64,000 bases of DNA from a bacterium (GCA_963675295.2 CAXXKJ010000002.1:128001-192000); one strand, 5' to 3'. Shown: positions 6,294-52,793, counted from the first letter of the stretch. Notes: a model not told the origin generated them from the letters alone. Numbers and translations: made by a program.

Positions 6294-6295
6294 AG

Positions 6296-6369: not shown

Positions 6370-6383
6370 AAAAATAAAAACAG

Positions 6384-8540: not shown

Positions 8541-8569
8541 AAAAAAGCCACGGACGTCGCGCCCGTGGC
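8541..8569 (-). terminator. Intrinsic terminator hairpin after the FG-GAP gene at 8651
   Basis: GCCACGGG...TCCGTGGC stem followed by T6 on the minus strand; near-identical copy at 10676-10703. Confidence 0.7.
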
Positions 8570-8650
8570 CTGAAGTGTTTTGTCTGTTGCGTCAGTTACG
8601 TCAGTTACGTCAGTTGCATCTGTTGCGTCTGTGGCGTCGGTGGCTTTCTG

Positions 8651-10423: not shown

Positions 10424-10675
10424 AACTCCTCCCCTTGCTCGGTTTACGTCCAGCCGGTATTACAGACTGAATCTGCAATGAATCCATACGTCGCTTCCCG
10501 TTCTGCAAGGTGCAGTTGGCTGCGCGTGTGTTCAAGCTCTTGCTGGTAGTTGATCACGTTGAAACCGGCCTCGTGGAGTGACCTTCGCACTCAGCGTCCT
10601 CATCCCGCACGTGGGCAGTAACTCGGCTAGTCAATGGGTAGCCAACGGTCCGTGAACGGGCAATCAATGGCAGAG

Positions 10676-10703
10676 AAAAGGCCACGGACTCGCGCCCGTG
10701 GCC
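10676..10703 (-). terminator. Intrinsic terminator hairpin after the gene at 10766
   Basis: GGCCACGGG...TCCGTGGCC stem plus TTTT on the minus strand. Confidence 0.65.
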
Positions 10704-10765
10704 TGAGATGTTTTATCTGTTACGTCCTTTGCGTCTTTTGCATCCGTTGCGTCTTTTGCTTTCTG

Positions 10766-24769: not shown

Positions 24770-26293
24770 TTACTCACCGTCTTTGTCACTTTTCGACTCA
24801 GACGGGCGATCTGTTTTCTCCGATCCACCCAGTTCCTCGTGAAGATCAAGGATTTTCATCCCTGCCGCATAGTCGATTGCTTTCAACTCACGCAGCTGGT
24901 GCGTTTTATCGACCAGTTCACGGATGCGCTTGATGTGAGTGAAGATTTTGTTGACGTGCTGCCGTGCGTCCGGATTCTCCGTCGTCTGCATCGCCAGCAT
25001 TTCGGTGGCGACACGGATCACCGCCAGCGGAGTGTTGAATTCGTGAGACAGCGTCGCGCCGAGCCGGTTGATTGTTTCCAGTTCCTCAATTCGGCGCTGG
25101 CGTTGTTCTTCCTCGATTCGTGCGCGCAGGTCGTGCATCACCACCATCAGCCGCACCACGTTGCCAATGCTGATCGTGCTCAGGTTGATTTCGGCGGGGA
25201 ATTCGGTGCCATCCGGCAGTAGGTGCGTCCATTCGAAGCGGTGGAACCCGTTCTTGTAGGCCTTTTCAACCATCTCGTACGCTTTTTCCTCGGAACGACG
25301 ACCGTCCGGCTGGAATTCCGGCGAATACTCGCCGGGGTGATGACCGATCATCTCTTCCTTGGTCCGCGCATACATCTTCTCCGTCGCCGGGTTGCAGTCG
25401 ATGATCCCGTGTTCGTCGATGATCATGAACGGGTACGGAGTCTGCTCGAACATCAGCCGGAAGGTTTCTTCCGTCGCCGCGCGTTCGGTAATGTCGCTGA
25501 CGACACCGATTCGCCGGACAACCTTGCCGGTGTTATCCTTTTCCGGTTCGACTCGATGCAGAATCAGCCGCTGGGCGCCGTCCGGACGGCGAATCCGCAG
25601 CTTCAGCTCGTAGGATTTGCCCTCCTCAATCGACATGCGCTCGTGCTTAACGAACTCTTCCTGGTCGGCGGGATGCACCAGCCCGAGCCGTACATCCTTG
25701 TCCGGCACGATTTCCACCGGCTCGAAGCCGAAGATGCGGTACAATTGATCCGACCAGACGAAGTGATCCTGGCCCGGTTCATGTTCCCAGCTGCCAACAT
25801 TGGCGACGCGTTCCGCCTTGGACAGCATTTGCCGGTAGCGGTTCAGCTCGAGCGTGCGTTCGAGGACAACGTCTTTCAGTGGACGGCGGGGCATGTTGCG
25901 CATCTTGCGCTTGAGACGTACGAGCAGAAATGCGCTGGCGCCAACCAGCATCAGGAACAGCAGGAAGAAAGCGAGATCGCCGTACACCCCTTCCAGGTCA
26001 GCGGCGAGCTGGATGGAGGAATTGGTTTCGGGTGCGGGCAGGCGCAGCCGGGCTGTGAGTTTGCCGAGGATGCCCAGTTGGATTGGTAAGGTGGCCAGGG
26101 TCCAGAGCGCGGATCGTAATAAACGGTTCAGAGTGTTCCCGTCAGTGCATGTCTGCCTGTTGGTGGCCCCCGAAAATACTGTCCACATAACGATCTCCCA
26201 CGGTTGCCCGTAGTATACGCCATGGAACGGACATGGGGAAAGTAATGAGAATTGCATTGAGCTTGCACTCATGCCTCTCCCGATTGTAACCAC
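24770..26293 (-). CDS. Membrane PAS/PAC sensor ending in a HisKA dimerization domain, with no HATPase domain; start uncertain
   Basis: TM helices; GSWE...WSDQLYRIFG; two PAS domains; TLSHEFNTPLAVI; stop codon ~70 aa later with no N/G1/G2 boxes. Confidence 0.8.
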   Translation of the reverse strand: MVTIGRGMSASSMQFSLLSPCPFHGVYYGQPWEIVMWTVFSGATNRQTCTDGNTLNRLLRSALWTLATLPIQLGILGKLTARLRLPAPETNSSIQLAADLEGVYGDLAFFLLFLMLVGASAFLLVRLKRKMRNMPRRPLKDVVLERTLELNRYRQMLSKAERVANVGSWEHEPGQDHFVWSDQLYRIFGFEPVEIVPDKDVRLGLVHPADQEEFVKHERMSIEEGKSYELKLRIRRPDGAQRLILHRVEPEKDNTGKVVRRIGVVSDITERAATEETFRLMFEQTPYPFMIIDEHGIIDCNPATEKMYARTKEEMIGHHPGEYSPEFQPDGRRSEEKAYEMVEKAYKNGFHRFEWTHLLPDGTEFPAEINLSTISIGNVVRLMVVMHDLRARIEEEQRQRRIEELETINRLGATLSHEFNTPLAVIRVATEMLAMQTTENPDARQHVNKIFTHIKRIRELVDKTHQLRELKAIDYAAGMKILDLHEELGGSEKTDRPSESKSDKDGE

Positions 26294-30485: not shown

Positions 30486-30918
30486 CCCAATCGGAATGGT
30501 CCTGGGCGGACGTTAAGCGCCTGATAAATCAGAAAAACGCCAAATAAACTTCTTTTGCAGCGGCGCTCAGCTTTGGGCTCGACAGGTGGCTCCAGTCTTG
30601 CTCTCAAAAAAGTGGTCTCCACCGGAGACTGCGCCAAAGCGCTCAGCTTGTGAAACACATCGCAAAACCGGGTAATAACCAGCGATTATCAGCTTTATCC
30701 TACATCGTTATCGATTGTATTGGAGCTGCCGAAACCGCAGACGACCGCTTTCAAACAATACACTCCAACTTCCCCCCGTTGTACCTTGCTTTACCGGCTG
30801 TTTTTGTACGACAATTGTCTGGTGTCCAGGTTTGACTTGGACAATGGATTCTATCCGGCGTTCCGGGTACGCGGCGAATCCAAGGAGCTGCTACTGTTCG
30901 ACTGCGATGGAGATGGAC

Positions 30919-32283
30919 ATGAAATCACTGAACCTCGTGATCTCGGGGACAGTGAATGACATCTTGCGCCCGGTGTTGGATGACCTGCACAAGCAGGGCT
31001 GTTCGATTCAATCCGTGGAGACAGGCAAGAACGTGACGTTGGATTCGTCCACGGACGCGATTCTGATTCCTGTTTCTTCGGGGACAGTCGGCGAGTTGCA
31101 CAAGCGCCAGTTGTTTGAACGTTCCCGGTTTGCCCGTGTCCTGATGTTTACCGACGACGATGCGATCGACATGCTCGATCCGATCTCGGTTGGTGCTCAG
31201 GCGATGGTTTTTCCTCCGTTTCATCCTGCCGCCGTCTTGAACGCAATCGAGACCGCGATTCGTATCCAGGGCCAGCAGTCCACGCTCGAAGAATCCCTCG
31301 CCCATTACATGGAAAGCCACAAGCACCTTGGCGAAGCGATCCTGCTGACCGACAAGGCGGGGCTGGTGCTGTTTGCCAACGACTGGGCGAAGACCTTGCT
31401 CGGCGTCTCGGACGTTGATCTCAACGGGCAACACGTTGCGGACGTTTTTCCGATTGATGACGAAGACCTCGAGAACCCGCTCGAGGATCTGGCCGACCAG
31501 GTGGGCGAAGGCAGCCAGCTTGTTCCACCGACACGTGCAACGATCCGAGGCGCGGACGGGCAAGCGAAGGAAGTGCTGTTCCAGGTCAAGACCATCGGGG
31601 ACGAAAAAGCTCCTGACGGCATGCTGTTGATCTTTCACGAATACCGTCTGCGGAAAAAGCCGAAGCAGGTGGTGACGTTAAAGGAAGGCGACAAATCATC
31701 ACCGGTGCGTAATGGGGATGGCAGCGACGACGACATGCGCGTTGTCCGTATCCAGACCTTCGGCGAGTTCCAGATCAGCATTGACGACGAGGTCATCGAC
31801 GTTCACCGCTGGAGATCAAAGAAGGCGCTGGATGCCTTGTGCCTGCTGTTGCATTCGTATGGTAAGCCGGTGCAGAAGGACATCCTGATCGACTTTCTCT
31901 GGCCGGACGCTGACGGCGCCACTGGCAACCGCCGTTTGCTGAACGTGATCAGCGAGCTGCGTAAATACCTCGAACCGAACGCAAAAAGATATTCCCGCAA
32001 TAATTTCATCCGTCACGAATCCGGGATGTACCGTCTCAGCTTCGAGGACAATGTGTACCTCGACGCCGCGCTCTTCCGTGATCTGATCCGTCAGGGTGAT
32101 TATCACTGGGGTGTTGGTGAGTTCCGGATGGCGCGCACGTATTACCAGGAAGCATTGCAACACAAGTTTGGTGTGTTCATGCCCCGCTATATGAACTCTC
32201 CATTATTTGACGAGGCTCGGGAGTACTACGAGGAAACCGAGGAGCGAATCCGTCAACGACTCGGTTTCGAGTCGGAGCGCTAG
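30919..32283 (+). CDS. Transcriptional regulator: degenerate receiver + PAS + OmpR-type wHTH + truncated BTAD (SARP-like)
   Basis: EAILLTDKAG..FAN (PAS), IQTFGEF, WRSKKALD, LIDFLWP, ISELRKYLEP. Confidence 0.82.
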   Translation: MKSLNLVISGTVNDILRPVLDDLHKQGCSIQSVETGKNVTLDSSTDAILIPVSSGTVGELHKRQLFERSRFARVLMFTDDDAIDMLDPISVGAQAMVFPPFHPAAVLNAIETAIRIQGQQSTLEESLAHYMESHKHLGEAILLTDKAGLVLFANDWAKTLLGVSDVDLNGQHVADVFPIDDEDLENPLEDLADQVGEGSQLVPPTRATIRGADGQAKEVLFQVKTIGDEKAPDGMLLIFHEYRLRKKPKQVVTLKEGDKSSPVRNGDGSDDDMRVVRIQTFGEFQISIDDEVIDVHRWRSKKALDALCLLLHSYGKPVQKDILIDFLWPDADGATGNRRLLNVISELRKYLEPNAKRYSRNNFIRHESGMYRLSFEDNVYLDAALFRDLIRQGDYHWGVGEFRMARTYYQEALQHKFGVFMPRYMNSPLFDEAREYYEETEERIRQRLGFESER

Positions 32284-32638: not shown

Positions 32639-33376
32639 ATGAGGCAGAAGAACACCGTTGAACCACAGGGCACCGCGACAGCACCGCCCGGCGTAAGCAG
32701 CATGTTGAAGCCTTCTCGTAAGGTTGACATCCTGTTGCGTCGTATCGACCACATGGCCGAAGCGTGCCTGATCGTCGACCCGGATGGCCGCATTGTGACT
32801 GCGAACAGCGAGGCCGGTCGAATCTTTCAGATCAATCCGGACAAGCTGCTCGATAAGCGGGTAACGGATTATCTGCTGGTCAACGATGATCAATTGTTGA
32901 TGCCGGACGAGCAGTTGCTGATGGACGACTACGGGTACCCGCTCATCGTCGCCATGCGTTCCGATCATTCCTTCTTCCTCGCGCAGCTGCGTGGGGTCCG
33001 GATCATGATCAATGAGGTCGAGCGTGTATTCCTGATGATCGGGGATGCCAGCCTTGCTGCCCAGCGGGATGAGGAGCGTGTCCACAAGATTCAGCAGGAA
33101 TCGGTAAACGTGATTTTGAACACCCTGGCGCATGAGATCAACAACCCGTTGATGATTATCCAGGCGATTGCCGATTCGATGCGGCTCGGGTTCATCAGCG
33201 AAAGCAGCCGTGATCGCAGCTTGCGTCAGATCATCGAGCAGGTCCGTCGGATCAATTCGGCGTTGGAAGAGCTGCGTAAGAATCCGGAGCTACAGGAAGT
33301 GACGTATCACGGCAAGGCGAACGTCTACAAGCTGGATTCGAAGCAGAAGCCTCCATCAACAGACGACCAGGGGTAG
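32639..33376 (+). CDS. PAS + HisKA-only protein with no ATPase domain
   Basis: EACLIVDPDGRIVTAN; TLAHEINNPLMII; ends ~70 aa later. Confidence 0.8.
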   Translation: MRQKNTVEPQGTATAPPGVSSMLKPSRKVDILLRRIDHMAEACLIVDPDGRIVTANSEAGRIFQINPDKLLDKRVTDYLLVNDDQLLMPDEQLLMDDYGYPLIVAMRSDHSFFLAQLRGVRIMINEVERVFLMIGDASLAAQRDEERVHKIQQESVNVILNTLAHEINNPLMIIQAIADSMRLGFISESSRDRSLRQIIEQVRRINSALEELRKNPELQEVTYHGKANVYKLDSKQKPPSTDDQG

Positions 33377-33773
33377 CACAGACAAATACAGGTTACAGGG
33401 TTTGGTAGTACCCGGGCAGACGGATCGCGAGTTGGTTGCGGTCCGTCTTTTCTCTTGCTCGGCATGGCGGTGAGATCACTACGGCCGCGGGATTCATCCC
33501 GTGCTGTCATTCTCTGGCAATGGGTAAAAGCTGGAGAACTGACGAAGGGTACCGGGCAGGTCATTCTGATGCCGGGTTCGTTTACGGCAGAAGAAGGTCC
33601 CGTTTCGCGACAGGTCAACCGGAAACGCAGCCAGGTCAGAACTGGATCTTTCTCTCGCCTCTTCGTTCCATTCTGCAGGACGCATGCATCAACCAGACGC
33701 TTGCCGCTAAACGCAGAAACCACGTTCCGGGAACGTGGTTTCTATATGGATCTGGAAGGTCTGATCGAGTCGT

Positions 33774-34457
33774 TTACAACTGAGGTAGTATCCGTTGTGC
33801 CAGTGTCAAGCGGTAATACCCTTCATCCGCCATCAGCGGCATCAGGCTGGAAACCCTCAGTTGTACAACATGATCGCCTGGAGCAATCGGGATGTGGAAG
33901 CCATAGTTGTTCTGGGAGTGCAGTGGACGCCACGGCCCTCCGTCTACCCGGATTTCCCAATCCAGTTCGAGGCTGTCGATGGCTTCCTCGCCGCCGTAGA
34001 GGTTGTGCACGTAGGTCAATTCATCGAGCACATCGAGTTCACCGTCTGCGTTGTACAGGTTCCAGACCATCGGATGATTGGTGTAGAACGTGCCCGTCAG
34101 CACCGCCTGCAACGGATCATCCGATCCGACACGGTGCCACTGGTAGTTGGTCCAATCCAGCTGGTACGACATCTCGATCTCGGGGTCTGGAGTGTCAATT
34201 TCCTCGTCGGTTTTGTTTTCACCTTCCAGGTAGAAGCCCGCCCGGTTCAGACCGAAGGGGCTGTCATTGGTGATCATGCTCGATGACAAGCCGCGTTCCT
34301 CAATCGGCTGAGCGGTACGTGTCGGCCGCTTCTCCGGCGCACTGGACTGGCTTTTGGAGGAGGAAGAAGGCTGAGCCCCGACGTTTACCGTGACAAACAG
34401 CAGCATCACGGCAAGCATCAGCAGCGCTGATAATCGTAAGCGATTTCGATATCTCAT
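33774..34457 (-). CDS. Secreted hypothetical protein, putative minor pilin-like subunit (paralog of 36317)
   Basis: Signal peptide; shares TNYQWHRVG..GT...N and DH..Q...EGYY.L...P.L motifs with 36317. Confidence 0.6.
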   Translation of the reverse strand: MRYRNRLRLSALLMLAVMLLFVTVNVGAQPSSSSKSQSSAPEKRPTRTAQPIEERGLSSSMITNDSPFGLNRAGFYLEGENKTDEEIDTPDPEIEMSYQLDWTNYQWHRVGSDDPLQAVLTGTFYTNHPMVWNLYNADGELDVLDELTYVHNLYGGEEAIDSLELDWEIRVDGGPWRPLHSQNNYGFHIPIAPGDHVVQLRVSSLMPLMADEGYYRLTLAQRILPQL

Positions 34458-34479
34458 GTTCTATCCTTTATCACCCGTT

Positions 34480-36114
34480 TTACAAGGTGAAAACGCGTGC
34501 TTTCAGATACGTCGGCTCTTCGCTGTCATACGCGACACGAACCACCGCGCGATACTTCCCGGATGGAATACCGGGAAGACTCAGGCGGAATGCACGGTCT
34601 GAGTTGGGCATAATGACCGCTTCATGTCCTCCGAATACAGGTGTATCGGTGAACAGATCATAGACGCCTGGAGCGACTTCCTTTTCGATAACGATATTGC
34701 CATCGGCGTAGCAGTACCGGGATCCGGAATTATGAACAATAAAGGAGAAATCGCAGTAGTCCTCTTCACCGTCTGTGCGTGTTTCTATGTATACGCTGTC
34801 GATTTCGACTGCAACCTTGCCGGCATCCGGTCCCTTGAGAATCATCAGCTGTGTGCGAATCCCGCGGAATTGGTCCAGCAGCTCCGGATCCACGCCTTCC
34901 GGAATAAAGGTGATGGCACCGTAGAATTCGCCATCTACGGCATCTTCCGGTGTGTGAACCTTCGCCTTCACCGACGTCGACCGTTTCGGCAACAGGACAA
35001 TGTCGGTGTCAAGGATTTCAATCCAGTCGGTGCAGGAACGGTTGTGCGGCGGCAGCACGTTGCTGAACTTCGAATAGCCGCTCGGATCGATAAACCATTC
35101 CAATAGTTCTGGATGCAGCTTGATCGTATCATTGGAAACGTTTTGCAGATTGATGGCGAGATAGCTGTCGCCACCCGGGCTCAAGTTGCGTTGCAGGATT
35201 TTTTCCCGCAGACGGAACCGGGGCATTGCCGCTTTCAGCAATGCTTCGGTACCCTCAGCGGTTTCGTTGAAACGAACCTTTCCCTCGCGGATGGAGAATG
35301 GCAGGTTTTCGGTAATCGTCCGGCCTTCCCGTGTCCGCAGGTTGAAGCTCATCAGGTAGTAGCCATCGACCAGCGAGCCTCCGCCACTGGCACGGAAATT
35401 CCGTGTCCTTCCGGGAAGGATATAGCCCTGGCCACTTTCGAGGGGAACGGTTTCCAGCCGCACGCCGGCCGAACTCCACAGCGTGAAATCGCCACGTGCC
35501 GTGGTATGCACCAGGCCCTCGTTGCGAATACCGAGCAGAACCTCCCAGCCCGCGGTTTCCGCGAGGACGTTGTTCTGCAGTTCCGCCTCTTGACCATTCG
35601 GATACACAATCAGTGTGTCAGGATAAAGTACCGCTTCGTTTCGTCCGGATTGCACCACCGGCATCAGTACAGTTCCAGCCTGGCTCAGGATTTTGAAGCC
35701 GGCACCACCGTCTTCCAGATCAATCTGACGTTCATTGACATTGACCAGGAACATCGCGTAATAGGCACCTTGTGCATCACGGGGTGCTTCCACTGTGCCC
35801 GTGATCTCAACCCGTTGCATTGGTCCAACCACAGCTTCCACCGGATCCAGCGTGATCCAATCCGCACAGCCACGATCATAGGTGGAATCGGACGCGTACG
35901 GACGTCCTTCTTCCGTGATGTCCATGTTCTTGACAAGGAACTGGATCGATTCGGTCTCATCGCCGTCATTGATCGCGGTAATCGTGAATGTCGCCTGCTT
36001 GCCGCGATAGACTGGGATTTCCTGCACTGGTGGGCTCAGCACAATACTGGCCTGGGCCAAACCGGCAGCCAGAAGAAGCGTGAAGAGGACCAATGTGGAC
36101 AGACGGCGGATCAT
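34480..36114 (-). CDS. Secreted, internally duplicated fimbrial-chaperone-like (PapD/DUF916-like) Ig-fold protein
   Basis: Signal peptide; two repeats each with C.DWI, P.DA..G..Y and N.G...G motifs. Confidence 0.65.
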   Translation of the reverse strand: MIRRLSTLVLFTLLLAAGLAQASIVLSPPVQEIPVYRGKQATFTITAINDGDETESIQFLVKNMDITEEGRPYASDSTYDRGCADWITLDPVEAVVGPMQRVEITGTVEAPRDAQGAYYAMFLVNVNERQIDLEDGGAGFKILSQAGTVLMPVVQSGRNEAVLYPDTLIVYPNGQEAELQNNVLAETAGWEVLLGIRNEGLVHTTARGDFTLWSSAGVRLETVPLESGQGYILPGRTRNFRASGGGSLVDGYYLMSFNLRTREGRTITENLPFSIREGKVRFNETAEGTEALLKAAMPRFRLREKILQRNLSPGGDSYLAINLQNVSNDTIKLHPELLEWFIDPSGYSKFSNVLPPHNRSCTDWIEILDTDIVLLPKRSTSVKAKVHTPEDAVDGEFYGAITFIPEGVDPELLDQFRGIRTQLMILKGPDAGKVAVEIDSVYIETRTDGEEDYCDFSFIVHNSGSRYCYADGNIVIEKEVAPGVYDLFTDTPVFGGHEAVIMPNSDRAFRLSLPGIPSGKYRAVVRVAYDSEEPTYLKARVFTL

Positions 36115-36258
36115 TGTGCTTCCTCGGTGTAGGGTTGCGGGTGCCTGGTTTTAGTGAAGTTGTTTACAAAGCTACGAAAAGAAATATCAGAAAACAACGA
36201 ACATACTCTATAAAATTCGGTTTGTGTGCGCTATACGTGTAAGAATTATTAGGATTGC

Positions 36259-36296
36259 AAAAAGTGGTCCCAATCGGCCGGGCTCCGATTGGGACC
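36259..36296 (-). terminator. Strong intrinsic terminator directly after the putative major subunit gene
   Basis: 12-bp perfect stem GGTCCCAATCGG/CCGATTGGGACC followed by ACTTTTT on the minus strand. Confidence 0.8.
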
Positions 36297-36316
36297 TTGT
36301 AGTACGTCAGAGGAAC

Positions 36317-37009
36317 TTAGAGTTCCGGAACCGGGCAGCCGGCGATTTCCAGGCTGTAGTACCCATCGTCGATGTGGTACGGCAGGAAGAATTCACCCTT
36401 GAACTGGAACCAGTGGTCGCACTTCGCGATGACAAAGCCAATACCGTCATCATCCGGATTCATGAACTCGGTCCACGCGGGGTTACCAGCACCCGGAACG
36501 AGGCCATCACCGTAACGACCGTACCAGGTCAACGGGATGTCGCCACCACCACCATACATACCACCACGGAACACGAGCTCTTCAAAGCCATCGGCACCCG
36601 GGGTCAGGCCAACCCAGTTGGTCTGGTTCGAGCGGACGGTACCTTCAATGATGAATTCGACGGTTTCGTCGGCGTTACCAATGCGGTGGAATTCATAGTG
36701 CGTGTGCGCGTAGGTCTCGATCATGTGCAGTTCAACCCACAGCTCGATCAGGATCGGCGCGTAGCTGATGATCTGGTGACCACCCATGCCGTCGTAGTTG
36801 AAGTTGTTGACGTAGTCGCCATCGGTCGGATTCCACAGGCAGAGACCGGAATTGAAGCTACCAGTCGCACGGTCCCAGTTGTTCGGGTTTTCACCCCAAC
36901 CAGCGCCATAGATACCGTAAGCCGGCGGCGGATCAGCCTGAACGGCCGTCACGGCCAGACCAGAAATCGCAAACAAAGCAACAAAAAGGGTAAGCGCGAG
37001 CTTCTTCAT
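36317..37009 (-). CDS. Secreted hypothetical protein, putative major pilin-like subunit
   Basis: GGAGG RBS, signal peptide MKKLALT...VQA, C-terminal DGYYSLEI strand, own terminator. Confidence 0.6.
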   Translation of the reverse strand: MKKLALTLFVALFAISGLAVTAVQADPPPAYGIYGAGWGENPNNWDRATGSFNSGLCLWNPTDGDYVNNFNYDGMGGHQIISYAPILIELWVELHMIETYAHTHYEFHRIGNADETVEFIIEGTVRSNQTNWVGLTPGADGFEELVFRGGMYGGGGDIPLTWYGRYGDGLVPGAGNPAWTEFMNPDDDGIGFVIAKCDHWFQFKGEFFLPYHIDDGYYSLEIAGCPVPEL

Positions 37010-37349
37010 CGTACACATCCTCCAAAATAGCACCTATATTGGTGCATGTTCTGCCGGCACGTTTTCCCGAACGTGTTCGGCATGTTCCCTAGCCGTCCAG
37101 GTAAGCCTTCCCAAGCAAAGCCTGGACGGTTTTGCAATTGCCCCAGGGGGGCCCTTTTGCGGGTGTGGGATGACCCGGAACACATAAGACGATCCCACTA
37201 TCCCATTGAGAAAGATCTTTGGCTTTTTCTTTGTTTCCCGTGAATTTGGGCTTCAGAGTCAGAATGTTGTACCACGAATGTCTCTGATATCACCGGTTCG
37301 GAGCCCTTGTTTTTACACGGTTTTCGCTAAGATTTTGTGCGCACTGCAA

Positions 37350-38933
37350 TTACACGATGTGCGGAGTCACAAAAATCACGACTTCAGACTCACGTACCGA
37401 CTCCGCCGTGTACCGGAACAGGTAGCCGAGGAAAGGAATACTGCCGAGCAATGGGATCTTCCGTTCCTCACTTTCCTCGATTTCCAGGCTGAGTCCACCA
37501 ATGGTGAAGGTTTCGCCGTCTACGACACGGACCGTGGTCTCTGCACTTCGTGTATTGATCCGCGGAAGTCCATCGCTGTCCTGGCCGACCACATCACCCA
37601 CCTGGGGGAAGACATACATCGTGATCGTGTCGTCCCCTTCCGCAACGAAAGGCGTGATGTTGAGCTGGATGCCTGAACTGATGGATTGCAGCGTGTTGTA
37701 TGCGAAACTTTGTGCGCCTGAGGTCTGCGCCTGGAACCATTCTTCCCGTACCAGCTTGATACCGGCCGGGTGGCCGTTCATCGCCGTGATCCGCGGATTT
37801 GCACGGATTTGTGCATCTCCGCTCTGCAGCAACGTTTGCAGCGTGGCGTTGATGTCGAGAATATTCCCCGCGATGTCCGCACCGAGATCCGTCATCGTAA
37901 ATTCAAAGGCCGGATTGTCAATGCCCGGTGAACCCGCCGAGAACTGCCGGGCGCTTTCTTCGGACCGGTTGGCCGCCGACCAGTCGATGCCGAGCTGTAG
38001 CGACCCTTCGTGGCTGATTTCCGCGACAATCACATCGATGCTGATCTGCACAGGCGCCTTGTCCATCTCTTTCAGGTCGCTTTCGATGCGTTCCAGGATC
38101 ATCGACGGGGCGGTGATCACCACCGCGTTCCCAGAACGGCTGGCCTTGACATATGGGTTGAAGAATTCAGAAACCGTCAACACGGCCTCGTTGGCCAGAA
38201 TGTTCGCCAACGGTACAATCCGGGTTTCGGACAACAGGGCAAACGCCGGATCTTGCGTGCTGATGCTGCCGACGAAATACTTGCCGCCACGTTCACGGAA
38301 CGCATACCCCAACGGAAGCAGGATCGACTCCAGCACTTCTTCCAACGGTTGGTCGATGGCGTCATACGTGACCAGGCCTTCCAGCCCGCCGCCGTACAGA
38401 ATCGGCACGCCGGCTTCCATCGACAAGTCGGACAACACGACACGCAGGTCACTTTCAAAGAAGGAGTTGGTGATCCGCGGCTGATCGTCCTCCATGGACA
38501 AATCTGCGTCCACAGCAGCGCCGGCAGCCGGTTCATCAGTCTCCTCATACGCCGGGGCGTCCTCACGGATCGCGCGCTGCCAACCCTTCAGCCGCCACAC
38601 CTTGCTGCTGTCCTTTTCCGTTCTCGCCCAGCGGAAGGATTCCTGAATCGCATCGCCGGCAGCGTCCGCGTCACTCATATAAAGGTGAGCTTCCGCGAGC
38701 ATCAGGGTGAGGTCAAATCGTGCCGGGGATGGGTCCATCTTGGACAGCGCGTCGTTGAGATAGGACACAGCTTCAGAATACCGTTCGGATTTCAACATGT
38801 CGTGCGCGAACGATTTGCTGAGCTGCTGCTGGTGGTTCCGGGTTTCATCGCGTGCAAAACCAGGAACAGCCGTGGCGAGAACAAGCACCATAAGGCACAT
38901 GATCAGGGGGTTTTTCGACTTGTTCCAGTCCAT
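37350..38933 (-). CDS. Outer-membrane secretin (GspD/PilQ superfamily) with TPR-like N-terminus
   Basis: D.APVQISIDVIVAEI, LGIDW, ANPRITAMNG, GIQLNITP, INTRSAET, GETFTIGGL, KIPLLGSIPFLGYLF, EVVIFVTPHIV. Confidence 0.92.
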   Translation of the reverse strand: MDWNKSKNPLIMCLMVLVLATAVPGFARDETRNHQQQLSKSFAHDMLKSERYSEAVSYLNDALSKMDPSPARFDLTLMLAEAHLYMSDADAAGDAIQESFRWARTEKDSSKVWRLKGWQRAIREDAPAYEETDEPAAGAAVDADLSMEDDQPRITNSFFESDLRVVLSDLSMEAGVPILYGGGLEGLVTYDAIDQPLEEVLESILLPLGYAFRERGGKYFVGSISTQDPAFALLSETRIVPLANILANEAVLTVSEFFNPYVKASRSGNAVVITAPSMILERIESDLKEMDKAPVQISIDVIVAEISHEGSLQLGIDWSAANRSEESARQFSAGSPGIDNPAFEFTMTDLGADIAGNILDINATLQTLLQSGDAQIRANPRITAMNGHPAGIKLVREEWFQAQTSGAQSFAYNTLQSISSGIQLNITPFVAEGDDTITMYVFPQVGDVVGQDSDGLPRINTRSAETTVRVVDGETFTIGGLSLEIEESEERKIPLLGSIPFLGYLFRYTAESVRESEVVIFVTPHIV

Positions 38934-39709
38934 TGTCCTTCTCTCCGTGAATGACGATGGGTGTTGCGTCATCGTTTGTTCGCTCTGTTTCCACCGATGA
39001 GGATCTTCTCATCAGGTTGCGCCCTGTGGAAACAAATTCTCCGAGTTCCGCTCGTAATCGCTTTTTCAAGTATCGCCTGTCTGATGATCAGACGGGCTGA
39101 TTGGGAAATTCGCGATTTCTGCGTGCCATGGTACCGGATTGGGTTAGACCATTGTACTACAAAAACGCCGAATTCCCCGACAAGAGTCCAAAACACCCAT
39201 AAAGCTCTAAAAATAACTGGGAGTTACGATTTGCTTTCTCTGGAGACAATACGCGAAAAACGCCGATATCGGTCAAGCGTTGTCAGAACACAAAGTTTGA
39301 AAACGTTTAGAATCCGGCTTGGAGAGGAGAGGTAGGTGAGGTACTAGCATTGTGCTAGCGACTCAAAATTAGTATACTCTCATCAGAATTTTAACTAATT
39401 CGCCGCGTTTACTCCGGCAGTATCAGTATTCGGAGGATATGGGTTTGTAAAAGAGAGGCGCGAGAGCTCGGGTAAGGTGTGTAGACACAACCAGATAACA
39501 CCATTTCGCTGTTTTGTGGTTTCATCAATCTTTAAAAAAAGCTTGACTACGAAAAAAGCTCGACCGTATTTTCCGCGCAGACGTGTTAATCCTCAATAAG
39601 CGAAATGTTTGAGACAACTCTCCGGAACCCTTAATGAAACTCCACGGGCGCGGAGCTTCAGGGCAAAACGGGTGAAGATCACGGTTTCCGGTGTACGATG
39701 GAGGGTGTG

Positions 39710-41095
39710 ATGGAAACACTGAATCTCGGTGTGTTTGGAATGGATTGTGCGAAGCATCCCCAGCTCGTGGATCAGCTCGAGCAGGCGGGATGCCGTGTTA
39801 TTTGTTTGCCGGAAGTTCGAAAGAATCCGCTCGAGCAGTTGAATCACGTTCGACCCGATGCCGCACTCTACCTTTATAATGAGGACACCCTGAGCGAGGC
39901 GCCGAATGTGTTGAGTGGCGCCCCGGCGAATGCGTCTGTCCCCTGGGTGGTGCTTGTTGAGGACGAAAAGTCGGTCAACCAACTCCCCGCCCATTCCCTC
40001 AACGCGCACGGCATGTTGTTCTACCCGTTCCAGGCCAAGCAGATCTTTGCGATGGTTGAGCTGGCGATTCACTTGCACCGTCAGGAGCGGGTGAAGGACG
40101 TCATGCTCTCTCATTATGTAGAGAGTCTGCGGAATGTGAATGAGGCCGTGTTGTTGTCGGATCCGTTGGGACGCGTGCTGTTTGTCAACGAAAAAGCGTT
40201 GCGTCTGACCGGGTATGAAGACGCGTCCAACCGTCGTGTCGAGCAGGTGTTCAAGCTCGAGGACAATGGCAAACTGGACGTTGAGCACCCGGTGATCCAC
40301 TCGATGCAGCAATCGAACAACGGGCACGGCTCCCACCGCACGAACCTCGTCAACCGCAAGCAGGACTCGGTTCCGATCCAGTACCAGGTGAAGCGGATTG
40401 AACGCGGCGACAGCGTGCTCGGCGCGTGTGTCCTGTTCCACGAAATCCAGGCTCGTGCGACGGAAGACCCGCAGATCAGCCTGCAGGACTCGACCACGGA
40501 TGACGCCGCGCAGCTGGTGGTGGACAAGGTCAAGCGTGCCCGTCCAGACGAAGACAAGTCGGTTCGGATTCAGGTGCGCACGTTCGGCGAGTTCACGTTG
40601 ATTGTGGACGGCGACCGGATCGAGACGAACAAGTGGCGGTCGAAGAAAGCGCTGGACGTATTTTCCTACCTGTTGCTGCATTACGGCCAGCCGGTGCACA
40701 AGGAAGTGTTGATCGACTTCCTGTGGCCGAACCTGGATACGCACACTGGCAACCGCCGGTTGTTGAACGCCGTCTCGGAATTGCGCAAGTATCTCGAGCC
40801 GGACGCGAAGCGTTATTCCCGCAACAGTTTCGTCCGTCACGAGTCGGGCGTTTACCGTCTCGATTTCGGCGAGAACGTGTACATCGACACACTGGTCTTC
40901 CGCGAATTGGTGCGCAACGGCGATTACCAATGGGCAACCGGCCAGAAGCGGTTGGCGCGGACCTTCTACCTCGAAGCCTTGCAGCACAAGGACGGCCAGT
41001 TCTTGCCGCGCTACCTGTATGAGCGTGAATTTGAAGAGGCTCGTGAGCAGTACGATATCACCGAGGAACGCATTCGTTCGCGGATCGAGGAGTAG
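39710..41095 (+). CDS. Transcriptional regulator: degenerate receiver + PAS + wHTH + truncated BTAD (paralog of 30919)
   Basis: EAVLLSDPLG..FVN, VRTFGEF, WRSKKALD, LIDFLWP, SELRKYLEP; start at 39698 or 39710. Confidence 0.82.
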   Translation: METLNLGVFGMDCAKHPQLVDQLEQAGCRVICLPEVRKNPLEQLNHVRPDAALYLYNEDTLSEAPNVLSGAPANASVPWVVLVEDEKSVNQLPAHSLNAHGMLFYPFQAKQIFAMVELAIHLHRQERVKDVMLSHYVESLRNVNEAVLLSDPLGRVLFVNEKALRLTGYEDASNRRVEQVFKLEDNGKLDVEHPVIHSMQQSNNGHGSHRTNLVNRKQDSVPIQYQVKRIERGDSVLGACVLFHEIQARATEDPQISLQDSTTDDAAQLVVDKVKRARPDEDKSVRIQVRTFGEFTLIVDGDRIETNKWRSKKALDVFSYLLLHYGQPVHKEVLIDFLWPNLDTHTGNRRLLNAVSELRKYLEPDAKRYSRNSFVRHESGVYRLDFGENVYIDTLVFRELVRNGDYQWATGQKRLARTFYLEALQHKDGQFLPRYLYEREFEEAREQYDITEERIRSRIEE

Positions 41096-41513: not shown

Positions 41514-43232
41514 ATGACACACGCACCGTCCGGATTGACCCTCATCCCCTCGCGAAATCGTGGCTCCTCCGCGTTTGGTTCTGTACTTGCATTCGCGTTC
41601 CTGCTTGTCCTGCTGACGGTCATTCCGCTGAGTTCGCACGCTGAATGGACCAGCGAGGGTGTCATCTTCAACAACGGTGATTTCGTCAACTACTTCGAGG
41701 CGGTCCCGTGTCCGGCGGGCGGGATGTGGTTCGTCTGGGCGGAGAATTACGACTGGGATACCACCGAGATCTACGCGCAACGGATCACGGAAGAGGGCGA
41801 TCTGGTCTTTCCCGAACCGCTAACTCCTCACGACGAAGCGCTGGATGGGGATATCATAGCCGGCGCATTGCCAGGAGAAGATGGGTCGCTTCTACTTGTT
41901 TACGCCCGGATTGATACGGACGGTGTTACCCGCTTGTTTGTTCAGCGATTTGCATTGGACGGAACCCGGCTTCACGATGGATTCGGACAGTACGCATCCG
42001 ATCCAGACAATCAATCAACCATCTATTTCTGGGGGATTGGGGCAAGAACAGACGACAATGGTGGCTGCTGGACACTGTTCGATCAACACGGAGCGCTGTA
42101 CTTGAACGGATGGAACACAGATGGAACACAGAAGCTGGATGAAAATCTGGAGATTTCCGTTAACACTTCGGATAACGACAGCCGGTTGATCCCTGATGGT
42201 GCTGGCGGTGTGATTCACATGGAGGTAAGGCCTCCTGAAGATCCTTACCCGGATCAGCCAGACATCTATATGCAGCGGTACAATTATGATGGAAGCACAC
42301 AGTTTCCCGAACCTCTGCTGGTTAACGAGGACGGAGGTGATCTAATCGACGATCGCGATTATCTGGTGATGGATGCGCAGAATGATGGCGTGTTTCTGTT
42401 GACGGAAAATCACTGGCAGTACTACGACAGTGCTTTCAATCCATTATGGCCAGAAGTTGTGGATCCGTATGTTGGCAGTTTGGATGGATCAGTTTTATCC
42501 CCACCAGTAGTATTTCAAGATAATACCGTTGTTCAAGCATTAAGTGGACATAGTACTGGGAATGGGATGATGTTAATTCATGCGGATGGAACAATAGATA
42601 ACTCTACTGTCTATCCTATTCCATTATTTCAAATAAGTGCAGTGCGTGATTTGAAGTTAAATTCTGATAATCATCTTGTTACGCAAATATGTTTAGATGT
42701 AGATAGTGAGCATGAACAATACTATATTGTGATTTTCGATTCACTTGGAAATGAAGTACATGATCGTGTTCAGATATTTCCGGAACCACGCGATTGGATA
42801 TCACCACATTTTGACTGGATTAAGCGTTTTGATGATGTATCATTTTTGACGATGCATCTTTATAATGAATATTGGCGCTTATGGAGATTTGATGAGCTCA
42901 CTGGCGCGATTTACGGTAGACCTGATGCGGTTTCCGAATCGGGATCGCAGTCGCTCCCTCAATCCTTTTCGATCACGTCGGTCTATCCGAACCCGTTCAA
43001 TTCCGCCTGCACAATCCAGATCGACGTATCACGCCCCACCGCGCTGTCCTTCGCCGTGTATGATATCCTCGGGGCGCTGGTTCACGAAGAGAGCATTGGC
43101 GAAACAGCTGCCGGAATGCACACGATTCACTGGGCCCCGGTCCCGGATCACGCGTCCGGCCTGTATTTCGTTCGACTCCAGGATGGGGCAGCGGGACTCA
43201 CGCAAACGCGCAAGATCGTGTTAATCAAATGA
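41514..43232 (+). CDS. Secreted protein with PDGAGG-type repeats and T9SS CTD
   Basis: Signal peptide, IYAQRI/IYMQRY and PDGAGG motifs, PNPFN...RKIVLIK. Confidence 0.82.
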   Translation: MTHAPSGLTLIPSRNRGSSAFGSVLAFAFLLVLLTVIPLSSHAEWTSEGVIFNNGDFVNYFEAVPCPAGGMWFVWAENYDWDTTEIYAQRITEEGDLVFPEPLTPHDEALDGDIIAGALPGEDGSLLLVYARIDTDGVTRLFVQRFALDGTRLHDGFGQYASDPDNQSTIYFWGIGARTDDNGGCWTLFDQHGALYLNGWNTDGTQKLDENLEISVNTSDNDSRLIPDGAGGVIHMEVRPPEDPYPDQPDIYMQRYNYDGSTQFPEPLLVNEDGGDLIDDRDYLVMDAQNDGVFLLTENHWQYYDSAFNPLWPEVVDPYVGSLDGSVLSPPVVFQDNTVVQALSGHSTGNGMMLIHADGTIDNSTVYPIPLFQISAVRDLKLNSDNHLVTQICLDVDSEHEQYYIVIFDSLGNEVHDRVQIFPEPRDWISPHFDWIKRFDDVSFLTMHLYNEYWRLWRFDELTGAIYGRPDAVSESGSQSLPQSFSITSVYPNPFNSACTIQIDVSRPTALSFAVYDILGALVHEESIGETAAGMHTIHWAPVPDHASGLYFVRLQDGAAGLTQTRKIVLIK

Positions 43233-45289: not shown

Positions 45290-46396
45290 ATGACCCCGTT
45301 TTGGAAAAAGATCCGTCCCCGCAGTCGGCTTCTGTTGTTCCTCTTTCTATCGACGTTCATCGCGGCGCAGGTGAGCTGGTGGGTGATCTACCAGGTGCGT
45401 ACCGCCGAACGGGTCGAAACGTTGCAGCACGAGGTATGGGATCGGGAAATTCGTGTCGCGGACCGTCTGATCGCACGGCACGAAGCGGTCACGGACAGCA
45501 TGGCGGCGCTGCTGAGTACGCTGTTCGAGGATCTGGAATACAGCCATGATCTGAACGGCGTAATTGTGAAGCAGGAGGCCCGTGAACGGCTGGCGTCAGA
45601 AACGACAGACGTCGCCCGCATGTTCGCGATGGAGAGCATGACGTTCCTCGTCATCATCCTCGCCGGGATGATTTACATGTACGTGACGTTGCGGCGGGAG
45701 ATCCAGGTCGAACGGCAGTATGCCAACTTCCTGTCCGCGGTGACCCACGAGCTGCGCAGCCCGATCGCGGCGATGCGGCTGCTGATGGAATCTCTGCAGG
45801 GGGACCTGACCCCGGACCAGCGCGACCGAGTCCTGCTCAACATGAACCGCAGCCTCGACCGTTTGCACGGCCTGATCGACCGTTTGCTGACCACCCGTGA
45901 ATTTGTCGGCCAACGGCGGCCGTTACGGGCGCTGAATGTGGTCGACCTCGGCGAACACACCCGCCGTGTGATTGACGAACTGTACGCGCACCATCCCGTC
46001 GCCGCCGGACGTCTGCAGGTCACAGTCGCCCCGTCCCTGCCGGCCCGGATCCACAGCGGGCACTGGGGAATTCTGGTCAGCAATCTCGTCGACAACGCGT
46101 TGAAGTATTCGGACAGCGAACAGCCGGTGCGGGTGGATGTGTCGCGAAAGGGGTCACGCGTGGTGTTGACCGTGGCCGACATGGGCGAGGGCTTTTCGCA
46201 CTCGGAACGGCAACGGATTTTCAAGCGTTTCTACCGTATTGGCGAGGAAGACACCCGCACCGCCGAAGGCAGCGGATTGGGGCTGTATCTCGTGCGCGAG
46301 ATCGCGCATTCATTCCGGGGTGATGTGCATGCGCACAGCGACGGTCCCAACAAGGGCGCGACATTCACCGTGCGCGTCCCGCTGGCGAAGGACTAG
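45290..46396 (+). CDS. Two-component sensor histidine kinase
   Basis: Two TM helices, VTHELRSP, NLVDNALKYS, DMGEG, FKRFYR, GSGLGL. Confidence 0.93.
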   Translation: MTPFWKKIRPRSRLLLFLFLSTFIAAQVSWWVIYQVRTAERVETLQHEVWDREIRVADRLIARHEAVTDSMAALLSTLFEDLEYSHDLNGVIVKQEARERLASETTDVARMFAMESMTFLVIILAGMIYMYVTLRREIQVERQYANFLSAVTHELRSPIAAMRLLMESLQGDLTPDQRDRVLLNMNRSLDRLHGLIDRLLTTREFVGQRRPLRALNVVDLGEHTRRVIDELYAHHPVAAGRLQVTVAPSLPARIHSGHWGILVSNLVDNALKYSDSEQPVRVDVSRKGSRVVLTVADMGEGFSHSERQRIFKRFYRIGEEDTRTAEGSGLGLYLVREIAHSFRGDVHAHSDGPNKGATFTVRVPLAKD

Positions 46397-46607
46397 CCTC
46401 AAAGTGTGTGCCCGTGTCAGGATGTGCCCGTGTCAGCTCGCTGACGCGGACCAACCAGAACTTGAATGGGTGGTGGAGATCTTGCCCGTGTTGGCTCTGA
46501 CAACGCGGGTCATCCCAGACAGAACTGCCTGGTGCATGTTCCATGGACTTAGGTCCATGGAACTGAGGTGTTCGAGAGACGAAAGACGAGAGACCAGAGA
46601 CGATCAC

Positions 46608-47300
46608 ATGTCCCAGCGAATCCTGATAGTCGAAGACGAAGAGGCGATTGCCCTCGGGTTGCAGTTGAACCTTGAGCGGGACGGGTTTATCACCGAACTC
46701 GCGGTGGACGGCGAGGTGGCGCTATCGTTGATTGAGTCGTGGCAGCCCGACCTGGTGCTGCTCGATGTGATGCTGCCGAAGCTGAGCGGGTTCGATGTCT
46801 GCGACCGGGTGCGGAAAAGCGGCAACCGTGTCCCGATCCTGTTTGTCACCGCGAAGGACATGGTCGGCGACCGGGTCAAAGGGCTCGAACTCGGCGGGGA
46901 CGACTACATCACGAAACCGTTCTCGATGGATGAACTCCGCTTGCGCATTCGTGCGATGCTGCGCCGTCAGCAGTGGTACGAGAGCACCCCGGAACAGGGT
47001 GACGTAGTCGAATTCGGCGGCAACAAGGTCGATCTGTCGGCGTATCGTGCGACCACGCGGGACGGTGTCGTCACGATGACGCAGAAAGAGACCATGGTCC
47101 TCAAGCTGCTGATCGAGAACGAGGGCCGGGTGATCGACCGTGGCACGATTCTGAACCGGGTCTGGGGCGAGGAGATGTATCCCAGCGCGCGCACGGTGGA
47201 CAACATCATCCTCAACCTGCGCCGCCGTTTCGAGGTCGACCCGAAGAATCCGAAACACATCTTCACGCACTACGGCGCGGGGTATTCCTTCCAACGGTAG
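46608..47300 (+). CDS. OmpR-family response regulator
   Basis: ILIVEDE, LLDVMLP, VTAKD, DDYITKPF, RTVDN, YGAGYSF. Confidence 0.95.
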   Translation: MSQRILIVEDEEAIALGLQLNLERDGFITELAVDGEVALSLIESWQPDLVLLDVMLPKLSGFDVCDRVRKSGNRVPILFVTAKDMVGDRVKGLELGGDDYITKPFSMDELRLRIRAMLRRQQWYESTPEQGDVVEFGGNKVDLSAYRATTRDGVVTMTQKETMVLKLLIENEGRVIDRGTILNRVWGEEMYPSARTVDNIILNLRRRFEVDPKNPKHIFTHYGAGYSFQR

Positions 47301-49404: not shown

Positions 49405-49490
49405 CGGACTTTCCCCCAGAAATTCCATTTGACAAACAAAGATAAGGCAATCGGGGCGGGAAAACTCGCAGGCAGGCAAATCCGGGTATT

Positions 49491-52400: not shown

Positions 52401-52655
52401 AAGCGCCGCGACCACATCCCGCCCGCCAAACCGGTCGGCGTTCCGGGTCAGGTAACTGCGCGCGGCGGATTCCGGAGAACGCACGGACACGCGTTCGTTA
52501 ATGCCGAACCACGCTCGGGTGCTGGGTTGCGCGGCAGACGGGGCTTGCAGCGCCAGCAGGTCGGACGGTTGCGTCGCGAGCTGCGGGTTCGCCGCTGAGG
52601 CTGTCCCGGCGAACAGAACGACGCCGAAAAGCAGGCTGATCGGGATGAATTTCAT
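49491..52655 (-). CDS. Secreted M36/M4-type zinc metalloprotease (FTP/PepSY prodomain, carboxypeptidase-regulatory-like domain, T9SS CTD)
   Basis: HVTFRQ...IPV, VDAFDG, GEGGVDDAEDADVLRHEYGH, IAEGLCDY, GTITD..G.PI..ATV, PNPCN CTD. Confidence 0.87.
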   Translation of the reverse strand: MKFIPISLLFGVVLFAGTASAANPQLATQPSDLLALQAPSAAQPSTRAWFGINERVSVRSPESAARSYLTRNADRFGGRDVVAALELDAIRESRGGTHVTFRQVVDNIPVYRGEVRVHLNRDGLITATSSSVRPVDHRPRVDATLSVNEARRIAATTIGGLSRRAQPRAELMLYVDPVNSATRPAWVVHHSSLDPLGDWEVVVDAFDGSVLALDNRMAFEHGEGLVFDPDPLTTAEATYDDPGFTDNNDADTPELTAERVPTLLRDISFHDNVYWLEGPYVEIVDFEPPTVTPVSSATLNGFTFTRSQSGFEDVCAYAHIDGMQRHLRGLGFTNLQDAPIPVDAHAANGQDLSYYSPEFNRLGFGEGGVDDAEDADVLRHEYGHALHHDAVGGDLWGVDVRSIAEGLCDYWAATLSARTSDFRDNWVYNWDGHNSFWDGRVMTTSRTYPDDWADNLYDNGTIWANSLWIMRGQLEPDVADDIVAQSMYYLTPGIDPETAAQGMLQAEDDLYGGQYRSIVYHAFAVKGFLVETGTLAGTITDDLSGDPIPNATVEVDAGEFYSGESNASGEYEIPGIPIGEWPVTISATGYRGEETNALIEWETVTTLDAALSPYVASVAIDSLNLFTYIGANADSNFTISSFDGALNYLIRAEPEGVSPVTPYELHNFVDPPLPDGGEVRGLTFLDGRFYVLWDNQPDDHWVYVFDDNGFQIGGYAQPRSGPQPLYGLTNDGTNLASIDNGQITLFTTGGQVVGSISDVGADYRWITKQTDSDWFWCATEDGDIRAWDLNFGQTYGPFASGLPVSGLAWDAGREDRTSLVLLVNDGQNAPQVRFVHPDTGALSDDTHELYPNEPLATSGAAVFTGLQQGVDFRYFATMREDVAGYRVQLHRIRWTVPYLTFDPQFGYMTANSTESVAVHAESDELDADDYEATIYLFFPLGGQPLEIPFTLRVTSVAADDPGVGQPAMFDVTAPSPNPCNAATVLTVTVPHSGEVSLTVYDILGRQVDQRVWMQNAGSRRVTWTPAPGLASGVFLLRVQADGFAPTVRKVVVVK

Positions 52656-52793
52656 GCTGGGTTTCCTGTCCGCTGCATACTGTAACTTAGCACACACACG
52701 GCCAGATCGCGAGGTTTGATTGCGTTTTTCGCAGGGTGGCATGGGTCATGATACAACCGATGGCCCGGGTTTCATCGTCTCAGCCGACGTGGA

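Follow-up and report, generated by a model that had tools for sequence, protein, structure and literature searches.

A secretin gene linked to a tandem WxLIP/PapD-type chaperone-like gene: a candidate motor-less envelope module in a Zixibacteria-type bacterium

Within a 64,000-nucleotide stretch of bacterial DNA (GCA_963675295.2, CAXXKJ010000002.1:128001-192000; called the window below), four genes form a cassette that codes for a secretin, a 544-amino acid (aa) chaperone-like protein, and two small secreted proteins designated P3-type and P1-type. To our knowledge, secretins have been described solely at the outer-membrane end of machines driven by a motor, i.e. type II secretion systems (T2SS), type IV pili (T4P), type III secretion systems (T3SS), and filamentous phage, and donor-strand fibers of diderm bacteria are known only with ushers. 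We read the cassette, with a probability of about one in two, as a motor-less chaperone-plus-secretin module for small beta-sandwich subunits that most likely form a fiber; it would be a diderm counterpart of the WxL chaperone system with a secretin as the exit.

According to a preprint of October 2026 that was accessible in part (10.64898/2026.10.17.759780), the elr WxL cluster of Enterococcus faecalis builds a pilus in which ElrD polymerizes by N-terminal donor-strand exchange. In that text, ElrD and ElrC are the WxL pilins, and ElrE, which combines DUF916/DUF3324 with a membrane helix, is the chaperone that primes and nucleates donor-strand polymerization of the pilins. The accessible part further gives a C-terminal membrane helix for 96.7% of WxL chaperones and reports the WxL pilus system to be confined to Bacillota and to have no pore for secretion through which to thread. 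The Pam pili of bacteria of the Candidate Phyla Radiation (CPR) consist, as far as the partly accessible paper goes (PMC13278184), of the pilins PamA and PamB, which are served by the PapD-like chaperones PamC and PamD, both anchored in the membrane by a C-terminal helix. The window is part of the genome of an uncultured sediment bacterium, which measures 4.8 Mb in two contigs (92.8% complete), in which it occupies G000:C2:128001-192000.

The proteins of the cassette

The 544-aa protein was shown to have a chaperone-type fold with DUF916 kinship. Its AlphaFold2 (AF2) model, with a predicted local distance difference test score (pLDDT) of 85.1, consisted of two units (residues about 22-280 and 297-544) with two beta-sandwich domains each. 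The two halves of the protein aligned with each other by BLASTP at E 2e-5, i.e. the protein contains an internal duplication. Pfam placed WxLIP_PGBD/DUF916 (PF06030) at residues 311-403 with 27.1 bits versus a cut-off of 27.3, and 29.1 bits were obtained for PF06030 on this protein in a six-frame search of the genome. PF06030 was the commonest match in the family of the protein and was found at E<=0.01 in 11 of the 18 members used for domain counts (best 6.3e-10). A profile of the family matched the solved WxL-interacting protein (WxLIP) of Enterococcus faecium, EfmWxLIP1 (9i25_C; also 9i1y), at E 0.004 over residues 34-161, which lie in the N-unit. With VIA-align, superposition of the C-unit (residues 297-544) on 9i25_C gave Z 18.1 over 228 of 251 residues, the root mean square deviation (rmsd) being 4.7. 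The N-unit (residues 22-273) was superposed on whole chaperones of chaperone-usher systems at Z 11.5-13.3 over about 176-199 residues; the matches were YadV (Z 13.3, 189 residues aligned), CfaA (13.1), CsuC (13.0), FimC (12.6), Caf1M (12.6), PapD (11.6), and SafB. The sequence family PapD_N (PF00345) had no match in the genome and none among the 18 family members. In Foldseek, WxLIP had the best target TM-score for the 544-aa model among the matches listed (0.52-0.58).

A search for related loci with a 10-row alignment retrieved 8 genome and 6 metagenome loci, all close relatives from one phylum. The N-unit contains a long beta-hairpin, the second strand of which carries a conserved alternating hydrophobic pattern (QAxVVLLxTV), and in the profile alignment this hairpin sits at the position of the WxLIP hairpin. 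A hairpin of the WxLIP type is the donor strand in ElrE (10.64898/2026.10.17.759780, accessible part). Because DUF916/DUF3324 proteins are, according to the same partial text, real donor-strand chaperones of WxL pili, "chaperone" is a fair word for the 544-aa protein. Its C-terminus (...YLKARVFTL) was modeled as a beta-strand (residues 536-543), and a hydrophobic membrane helix was absent.

The secretin was matched by Pfam to Secretin (PF00263, E 4.3e-41), Secretin_N (6.6e-5), TPR_19 (0.0053), and STN (0.043). From the N-terminus onward, a TPR-like region is followed by an STN/N0-like domain, a single Secretin_N domain, and, at the C-terminus, the secretin domain. The open reading frame (ORF) codes for 540 aa, and an internal start (MDWNKSK...) yields a better signal peptide. 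None of the NCBIfam subfamily cut-offs for GspD, PilQ, MshL, SctC, HofQ, and PilN was reached, the scores being far lower (GspD, 150.9 versus 351; MshL, 149.3 versus 250; PilQ, 127.1 versus 284). The genome encodes four secretins, one in a T4P region and three each beside a homolog of the 544-aa protein. Sequence identity between the secretin in the window and its two counterparts in the other cassettes amounts to 51% and 32%, and for the T4P-linked secretin it is 25.5%.

The P1-type and P3-type proteins are paralogs, as evident from phmmer (E 1e-8 to 2.5e-9) and from their alignment. Both have the same C-terminal domain with a fixed end, ...DGYYxLxxxxCPxPxL or ...VPQL, and in the family alignment of 27 sequences, 25 terminate at one and the same column (...PxL). 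P3-type proteins end in ...DGYYxLxxxGCPxPxL and carry a conserved PPPAxGG..GWGxNPxxW directly after the signal peptide, the Trp being kept in 15/15; one to three copies of the gene are present per locus. In the P1-type protein, a Ser/Pro/Glu-rich N-terminal stretch precedes the shared beta-sandwich, and the sequence ends in ...GYYRLTLAQRILPQL. By analogy, the constrained C-terminus recalls the C-terminal strand recognition of chaperone-usher pilins and, going by the accessible part of the preprint, of ElrD. The family is rare, as a search of 1.84 billion representative clusters gave 214 at E<=1e-3, and the source names listed, from Zixibacteria, KSB1, and unclassified bacteria, all read "hypothetical protein". 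Sequence searches of the Protein Data Bank with two small-protein profiles returned nothing below E 0.09. No WxL domain (PF13731) was detected in any part of the genome at E<=0.1, and the two small proteins contain no LPxTG motif. The nearest named ESM Atlas clusters were DUF4402, WxL, and SCPU with scores of 0.86-0.89, so these kinships are leads only; likewise only a lead is the cluster at 0.89, in which 19% of the members carry WxL.

The AF2 model of the P3-type protein (pLDDT 93.0) was a beta-sandwich. Foldseek gave no match for it at E<=1e-3; the list of weak matches consisted mostly of donor-strand pilins (FimF, CfaB, PapE, Caf1, CsuA/B, a TasA-like protein, and an archaeal bundling pilin). 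With a search tool other than Foldseek, donor-strand pilins were matched by residues 93-230 at Z 6-8 and made up 25 of the 50 best rows. A second look agreed, and the matches from the two comprised CsuA/B (Z 7.7), CsuE and PsaA (7.8), and FimG (6.8-7.2). Since the tool rates the range of Z 6-8 as common, i.e. non-specific, the P3-type protein is read as an Ig-like sandwich that is pilin-like at best. The WxL chain of 9i25 was not among the matches listed in the P3-type fold searches, which is uninformative.

Judged by eye, all four proteins start with a basic n-region, a hydrophobic core, and an A-x-A-type site, and the AF2 models contained N-terminal helices at residues 2-17 of the 544-aa protein and 2-19 of the P3-type protein. 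An initial annotation of the window had described four co-oriented minus-strand genes with Sec-type signal peptides, which coded for a clear secretin, a 544-aa protein of two chaperone-like repeats, and two paralogous pilin-like subunits. All four ORFs were found again, including the secretin, for which the originally noted start is preferred, and the repeats were borne out by the BLASTP alignment of the halves and by the two-unit, four-domain model. Both kinds of similarity that had been considered for the 544-aa protein, PapD-type and DUF916, were found, and the AF2 models and fold searches yielded beta-sandwiches, not enzymes, for the proposed subunits. Their paralogy stood, whereas their likeness to pilins proved weak.

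Gene linkage, motor genes, and neighborhood

Twenty-five loci were examined, three in the own genome of the window, 14 in 13 other species genomes, two on further genome contigs, and six on metagenome contigs. The four-gene arrangement recurs in these 25 loci, far beyond chance. The secretin gene lies within the cassette in 22 of them, and contig ends cut the remaining three (L039, L068, and L070); in every one of the 22 untruncated loci the secretin is linked to a chaperone-like gene. P1/P3-type genes are present in 21 of the 25 loci, and other small secreted ORFs replace them in L036, L048, L049, and L050. The order is usually secretin-P3-chaperone-P1, but P3-chaperone-P1-secretin and chaperone-secretin were found as well. 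Of the conserved gene order that the initial annotation had looked to, the linkage was conserved, with a varying order. Wherever present, the P1-type gene follows the chaperone-like gene directly, with a gap of 22 nt in the window and of 7-46 nt in other loci. The other gaps in the window measure 340 nt between the secretin and P3-type genes and 202 nt between the latter and the chaperone-like gene.

A set of 79 species genomes from 55 genera was used to represent the phylum. Matches to the 544-aa protein at E<=1e-5 were present in 21 of these genomes and 19 of the genera. A tblastn search of 72,556 plasmids with this protein was negative, and relatives were scarce in word-index protein searches (4, 5, and 24 matches, counting the query itself). 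ESM Atlas pointed to Planctomycetota clusters of similar length, as leads only. In the own genome, all three chaperone-like genes adjoin a secretin gene, and all four P1/P3-family genes, as well as all six genes of a second small family, are located inside cassettes. One of the two further cassettes (L035, 8050-13030; G000:C2:659052-663891) is a full paralogous four-gene copy in the same order as in the window, with identities of 51% for the secretin, 40% for the P3-type, 46% for the chaperone-like, and 27% for the P1-type protein, and with its own terminator-like hairpin after the P3-type gene. The other one, locus C (L036, about 4650-11773; G000:C2:3702646-3709742), contains the second small family: six paralogous secreted ORFs of 150-178 aa with near-identical signal peptides and without a Pfam match lie immediately upstream of genes for a chaperone-like protein and a TPR-STN secretin. 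They have in common an N-terminal strand DVxLTIxPYAxV and a C-terminal end GTLTVTV, and a pair of small ORFs in L050 is related to them. Homology of these six ORFs with the P1/P3 family was considered and rejected; hmmsearch gave E values of 8.5e-5 to 8e-3, but hhalign aligned the signal peptides alone.

The screen for motor and usher genes was negative. Pfam detected no T2SSE, T2SSF, usher, PapD, or prepilin in 94 flanking ORFs of 16 loci, and no motor, usher, or prepilin gene is present anywhere in the 64-kb window, flanks included. When the PilB, PilT, PilC, and prepilin proteins of the own genome were compared with 889 ORFs across the 25 loci, none had a match, and matches of PilQ were restricted to the 22 cassette secretins. 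The only T4P set of the genome (PilB, PilT, PilC, and two prepilins) is encoded at C2:2.049-2.068 Mb and thus lies about 1.9 Mb away from the window. The T2SSE and T2SSF copies of the genome are confined to this region, which has its own secretin at C2:2059273, and N_methyl prepilins (PF07963) are encoded at C2:2049001 and C2:2050746 only. No usher (PF00577) was found above cut-off in the genome, which is 92.8% complete; the sole match scored 21.1 bits versus 27.1 and lay in a 2258-aa frame elsewhere. The absence of usher, ATPase, platform, and prepilin noted in the initial annotation was therefore confirmed for the whole window, none of the homologous loci contained an usher or a T2SS/T4P core, and at the level of the genome the search was left with a single distant T4P motor set.

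The features of the cassette and its candidate regulators are compiled in Table 1. The hairpin lies 20 nt past the stop codon of the P3-type gene, ahead of the chaperone-like gene, and may act as an attenuator. When the 80 nt after the stop codon were surveyed in 14 P3-type genes with 30 shuffles each, a comparable hairpin plus T-run was found in nine, each stronger than all 30 shuffles. A search of Rfam over positions 33000-40000 gave no match at E<=1, and the two long intergenic gaps of the cassette showed no ORF for a small lipoprotein.

Table 1. Positions of the cassette genes and associated features in the window
Feature	Position	Strand	Basis
Secretin	37350..38972, probable start 38933	(-)	Pfam, NCBIfam
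P3-type small secreted protein, 230 aa, candidate major subunit	36317..37009	(-)	AF2, alignment
Terminator-like hairpin, candidate attenuator setting subunit excess	36266..36296	(-)	12-bp stem, 8 G-C pairs, T-run
Tandem chaperone-like protein, 544 aa	34480..36114	(-)	Pfam, profile, AF2 model
P1-type small secreted protein, 227 aa, paralog of P3-type	33774..34457	(-)	phmmer, alignment
PAS + winged-helix (Trans_reg_C) regulator, divergent from secretin	39698..41095	(+)	Pfam
Second PAS + winged-helix regulator, opposite flank	30715..32283	(+)	Pfam; E 3.7e-97 to the 39698-41095 product

The two PAS/winged-helix genes are candidate local regulators of the cassette, although the link is weak; homologs of the one divergent from the secretin adjoin the cassette in L037, L042, L043, and L050. 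With a sigma-54 promoter consensus pattern, no site was found within the cassette. A one-mismatch match was located at 30587-30602 (+), about 110 nt upstream of the regulator gene at 30715; across the window, five sigma-54-like matches were counted versus 2.1 expected, which may be due to chance. Two PAS-HisKA proteins without an HATPase_c match, encoded at 24770-26293 (-) (507 aa) and 32639-33376 (+) (245 aa), may be truncated or split histidine kinases. A full HisKA-HATPase kinase and an OmpR-type response regulator are encoded at 45290-47300.

Several neighboring genes code for cargo of the type IX secretion system (T9SS) kind: a protein with Por_Secre_tail as its sole domain (41514-43232 (+)), a protein with FG-GAP repeats and Por_Secre_tail (47302-49722 (-)), and a 1083-aa fungalysin (M36)-like peptidase with CarboxypepD_reg (49491-52742 (-)). 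Proteins with T9SS tails also flank the cassette in six other loci (L035, L040, L041, L045, L048, and L049), which may reflect their mere abundance in this phylum. The C-terminal sorting domains are consistent with a host from the Fibrobacterota-Chlorobiota-Bacteroidota (FCB) group. An origin of the cassette from filamentous phage was dropped as an explanation; phage-type genes were not seen among the flanks in the window. In a genome of the same genus, a D5_N/DUF5906 primase-helicase-like gene (L038:3415-6477; G026:C45) is situated about 800 bp from the cassette. Genes of this kind are found in phages and integrative elements. Together with the patchy spread over 19 of 55 genera and the multiple copies per genome, this neighbor hints at possible horizontal movement of the cassette.

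Proposed pathway and alternative explanations

The cassette is best read as an envelope module that is self-contained and belongs to a diderm bacterium of the Zixibacteria type. In the proposed pathway, Sec would carry all four products across the inner membrane. In the periplasm, the 544-aa protein, with its two fused units of the WxLIP/PapD type, would serve as a soluble chaperone and would capture the small beta-sandwich proteins, which it probably recognizes through their fixed C-terminal strand. The P3-type protein would be the abundant subunit, and the P1-type protein a minor one, synthesized in parallel with the chaperone. The chaperone would pass the subunits on to the secretin, which would take the role of the usher in providing the way out across the outer membrane. 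A thin fiber that grows by strand complementation between subunits is the most likely product, and folding energy rather than an ATPase would push it through the pore. We infer that the chaperone binds the subunits, that these polymerize and pass through the secretin, where the energy comes from, and which subunit is major and which minor. The hybrid "chaperone-secretin" interpretation put forward in the initial annotation is partly supported, and none of the four computational tests set against it refuted it.

More tentatively, and on the doubtful side of even, we propose a distinct diderm "chaperone-secretin pathway". The fused double WxLIP/PapD-type chaperone would hold two subunits next to each other and catalyze donor-strand exchange without an usher, the growing fiber would open the secretin and thread it by folding energy alone, without an ATPase, and the core would accept different subunit families. 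In the own genome, two cassettes carry subunit genes of the P1/P3 type and the third carries the six-paralog array.

Several observations weigh against the motor-less, fiber-forming reading. The small proteins matched no Pfam or NCBIfam family at E<=1, including the WxL, SCPU, and fimbrial families of Pfam, and the models suggest that their likeness to pilins is weak. The best structural match of the P3-type protein, at Z 8.1, was the N-terminal sandwich of a glycosidase, a carbohydrate-enzyme accessory sandwich. In the monomer model the first 65 residues of the mature P3-type protein were packed confidently (pLDDT 94-96 from residue 31), so that the predicted N-terminal part forms no free extension. 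A 40-residue motif common to the P1/P3 family, W-E-[IV]-S-x-DGG ... P-x-G-D-H-T-[FY]-Q-[FL]-R, is repeated in tandem in two giant proteins, P0153 (1081 aa, four copies) and P0156 (5876 aa, up to 17 copies), which would suit an ordinary, complete Ig-like domain. DUF3324 (PF11797) was detected by sequence at E<=0.01 in none of the 18 members of the 544-aa family, and unlike most of the WxL chaperones described in the accessible part of the preprint, the 544-aa protein is soluble and has no C-terminal membrane helix. Opening of the secretin gate, as proposed here, would need to occur without a piston. Finally, T2SSE ATPases are encoded in 79 of 79 phylum genomes, so that a motor could act in trans.

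The glycosidase match, the complete and confident P3-type monomer, and the tandem motif in giant surface proteins would all suit a secretin through which the small proteins, e.g. lectin-like or matrix proteins, are released or displayed in monomeric form or as small oligomers, with the 544-aa protein as no more than a periplasmic holdase or targeting factor. All of the linkage evidence fits this explanation equally well. It is nevertheless unlikely in our judgment, as the loci show an abundant gene followed by a terminator-like hairpin and a minor paralog coupled to the chaperone gene, which is the layout of pilus operons, and the array of six small paralogs in locus C resembles pilin gene arrays. 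Moreover, the experimentally characterized chaperone-usher chaperones and, going by the available portion of its description, ElrE all serve polymerizing subunits. An explanation without any chaperone is quite improbable. The 544-aa protein would then play a structural part as a multi-Ig protein, forming a periplasmic scaffold or cage beneath the secretin or constituting the cargo itself as an adhesin, as might be suggested by the Foldseek search with the whole model, the top rows of which were multi-Ig/ASH-domain ciliary proteins, by the presence of fn3_5 in 9 of 18 and Big_14 in 3 of 18 family members, and by the tandem fused form, which is without precedent among known chaperones. Those Foldseek rows were poor, however (TM 0.04-0.28, rmsd 19-54 A), whereas the units superpose whole on WxLIP and chaperone-usher chaperones. 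The prevalence of PF06030 in the family and the close spacing of the P1-type gene behind the 544-aa gene likewise speak for a chaperone.

Least probable of the explanations weighed is that the cassette secretin is an extra port for the distant T4P machinery and that its neighbors are accessory or unrelated envelope proteins. Such a port would be in keeping with the occurrence of T2SSE throughout the phylum genomes, with the one PilB, PilT, and PilC set in the genome, and with the established knowledge that secretins otherwise work with inner-membrane motors. This set has a secretin of its own nearby, though, and three cassette secretins would have to share a single motor. The signal peptides of the cassette proteins are of the Sec type rather than class III, and N_methyl prepilins are restricted to the T4P region. 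Across the 22 untruncated loci, the secretin is always linked to a chaperone-like gene and in no case to a motor gene.

Comparison with described systems

Among full texts available without subscription, nothing was found on a secretin linked to a WxLIP/DUF916-type chaperone. The term "secretin" was absent from the accessible parts of the Elr preprint (10.64898/2026.10.17.759780), the Pam paper (PMC13278184), and a WxLIP paper from 2023 (PMC10599100).

The secretin of the cassette is comparable to those of T2SS (GspD), T4P (PilQ and MshL), Tad (RcpA), T3SS (SctC), and filamentous phage (pIV) in having a secretin domain, an N0/STN-like domain, and one Secretin_N domain. It differs from all of these in that no ATPase, platform, pseudopilin, or prepilin gene is linked to it, in that it reaches no subfamily cut-off, and in the TPR-like region fused to its N-terminus. 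With the Pam pili, going by the accessible part of the paper, the cassette has in common that PapD/FimC-like chaperones are encoded with small proteins, donor-strand pilins in the case of Pam, outside the classical chaperone-usher pathway; Pam hosts have no outer membrane, and a secretin plays no part (PMC13278184).

The likeness to chaperone-usher pili (Fim, Pap, Caf1, Csu, and CFA/I) lies in the two-domain periplasmic chaperone fold (Z 11.5-13.3), in small Sec-exported subunits whose Ig-like sandwich is closest, if weakly, to chaperone-usher pilins, in the absence of an ATP-driven motor, and in the hairpin after the abundant subunit gene. In contrast to these pili, the locus and the genome contain no usher, PapD_N is not matched by sequence, the outer-membrane component is a secretin, and the chaperone is duplicated within one chain.

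As in the WxL/Elr system, a DUF916-type two-domain partner is encoded beside paralogous small Sec-exported beta-sandwich proteins, an ATPase is absent, and the C-terminus of the subunits is strongly constrained. The chaperone-like protein described here differs in being a fused tandem of two units. DUF3324 is undetected by sequence, yet of the 251 residues in the two-domain WxLIP chain, 228 are covered by the structural alignment. The small proteins have neither a WxL Pfam match nor LPxTG, and the host is a diderm in which a secretin is linked to the chaperone-like gene. The cassette is a testable four-gene unit for heterologous expression. If the motor-less chaperone-plus-secretin reading is true, a growing fiber or cargo delivered by a chaperone can open the gate of a secretin, and uncultured sediment phyla carry an unrecognized surface-fiber system. 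The WxL-type chaperone system, just described as pore-less and confined to Bacillota, would then have deep relatives in diderm bacteria.

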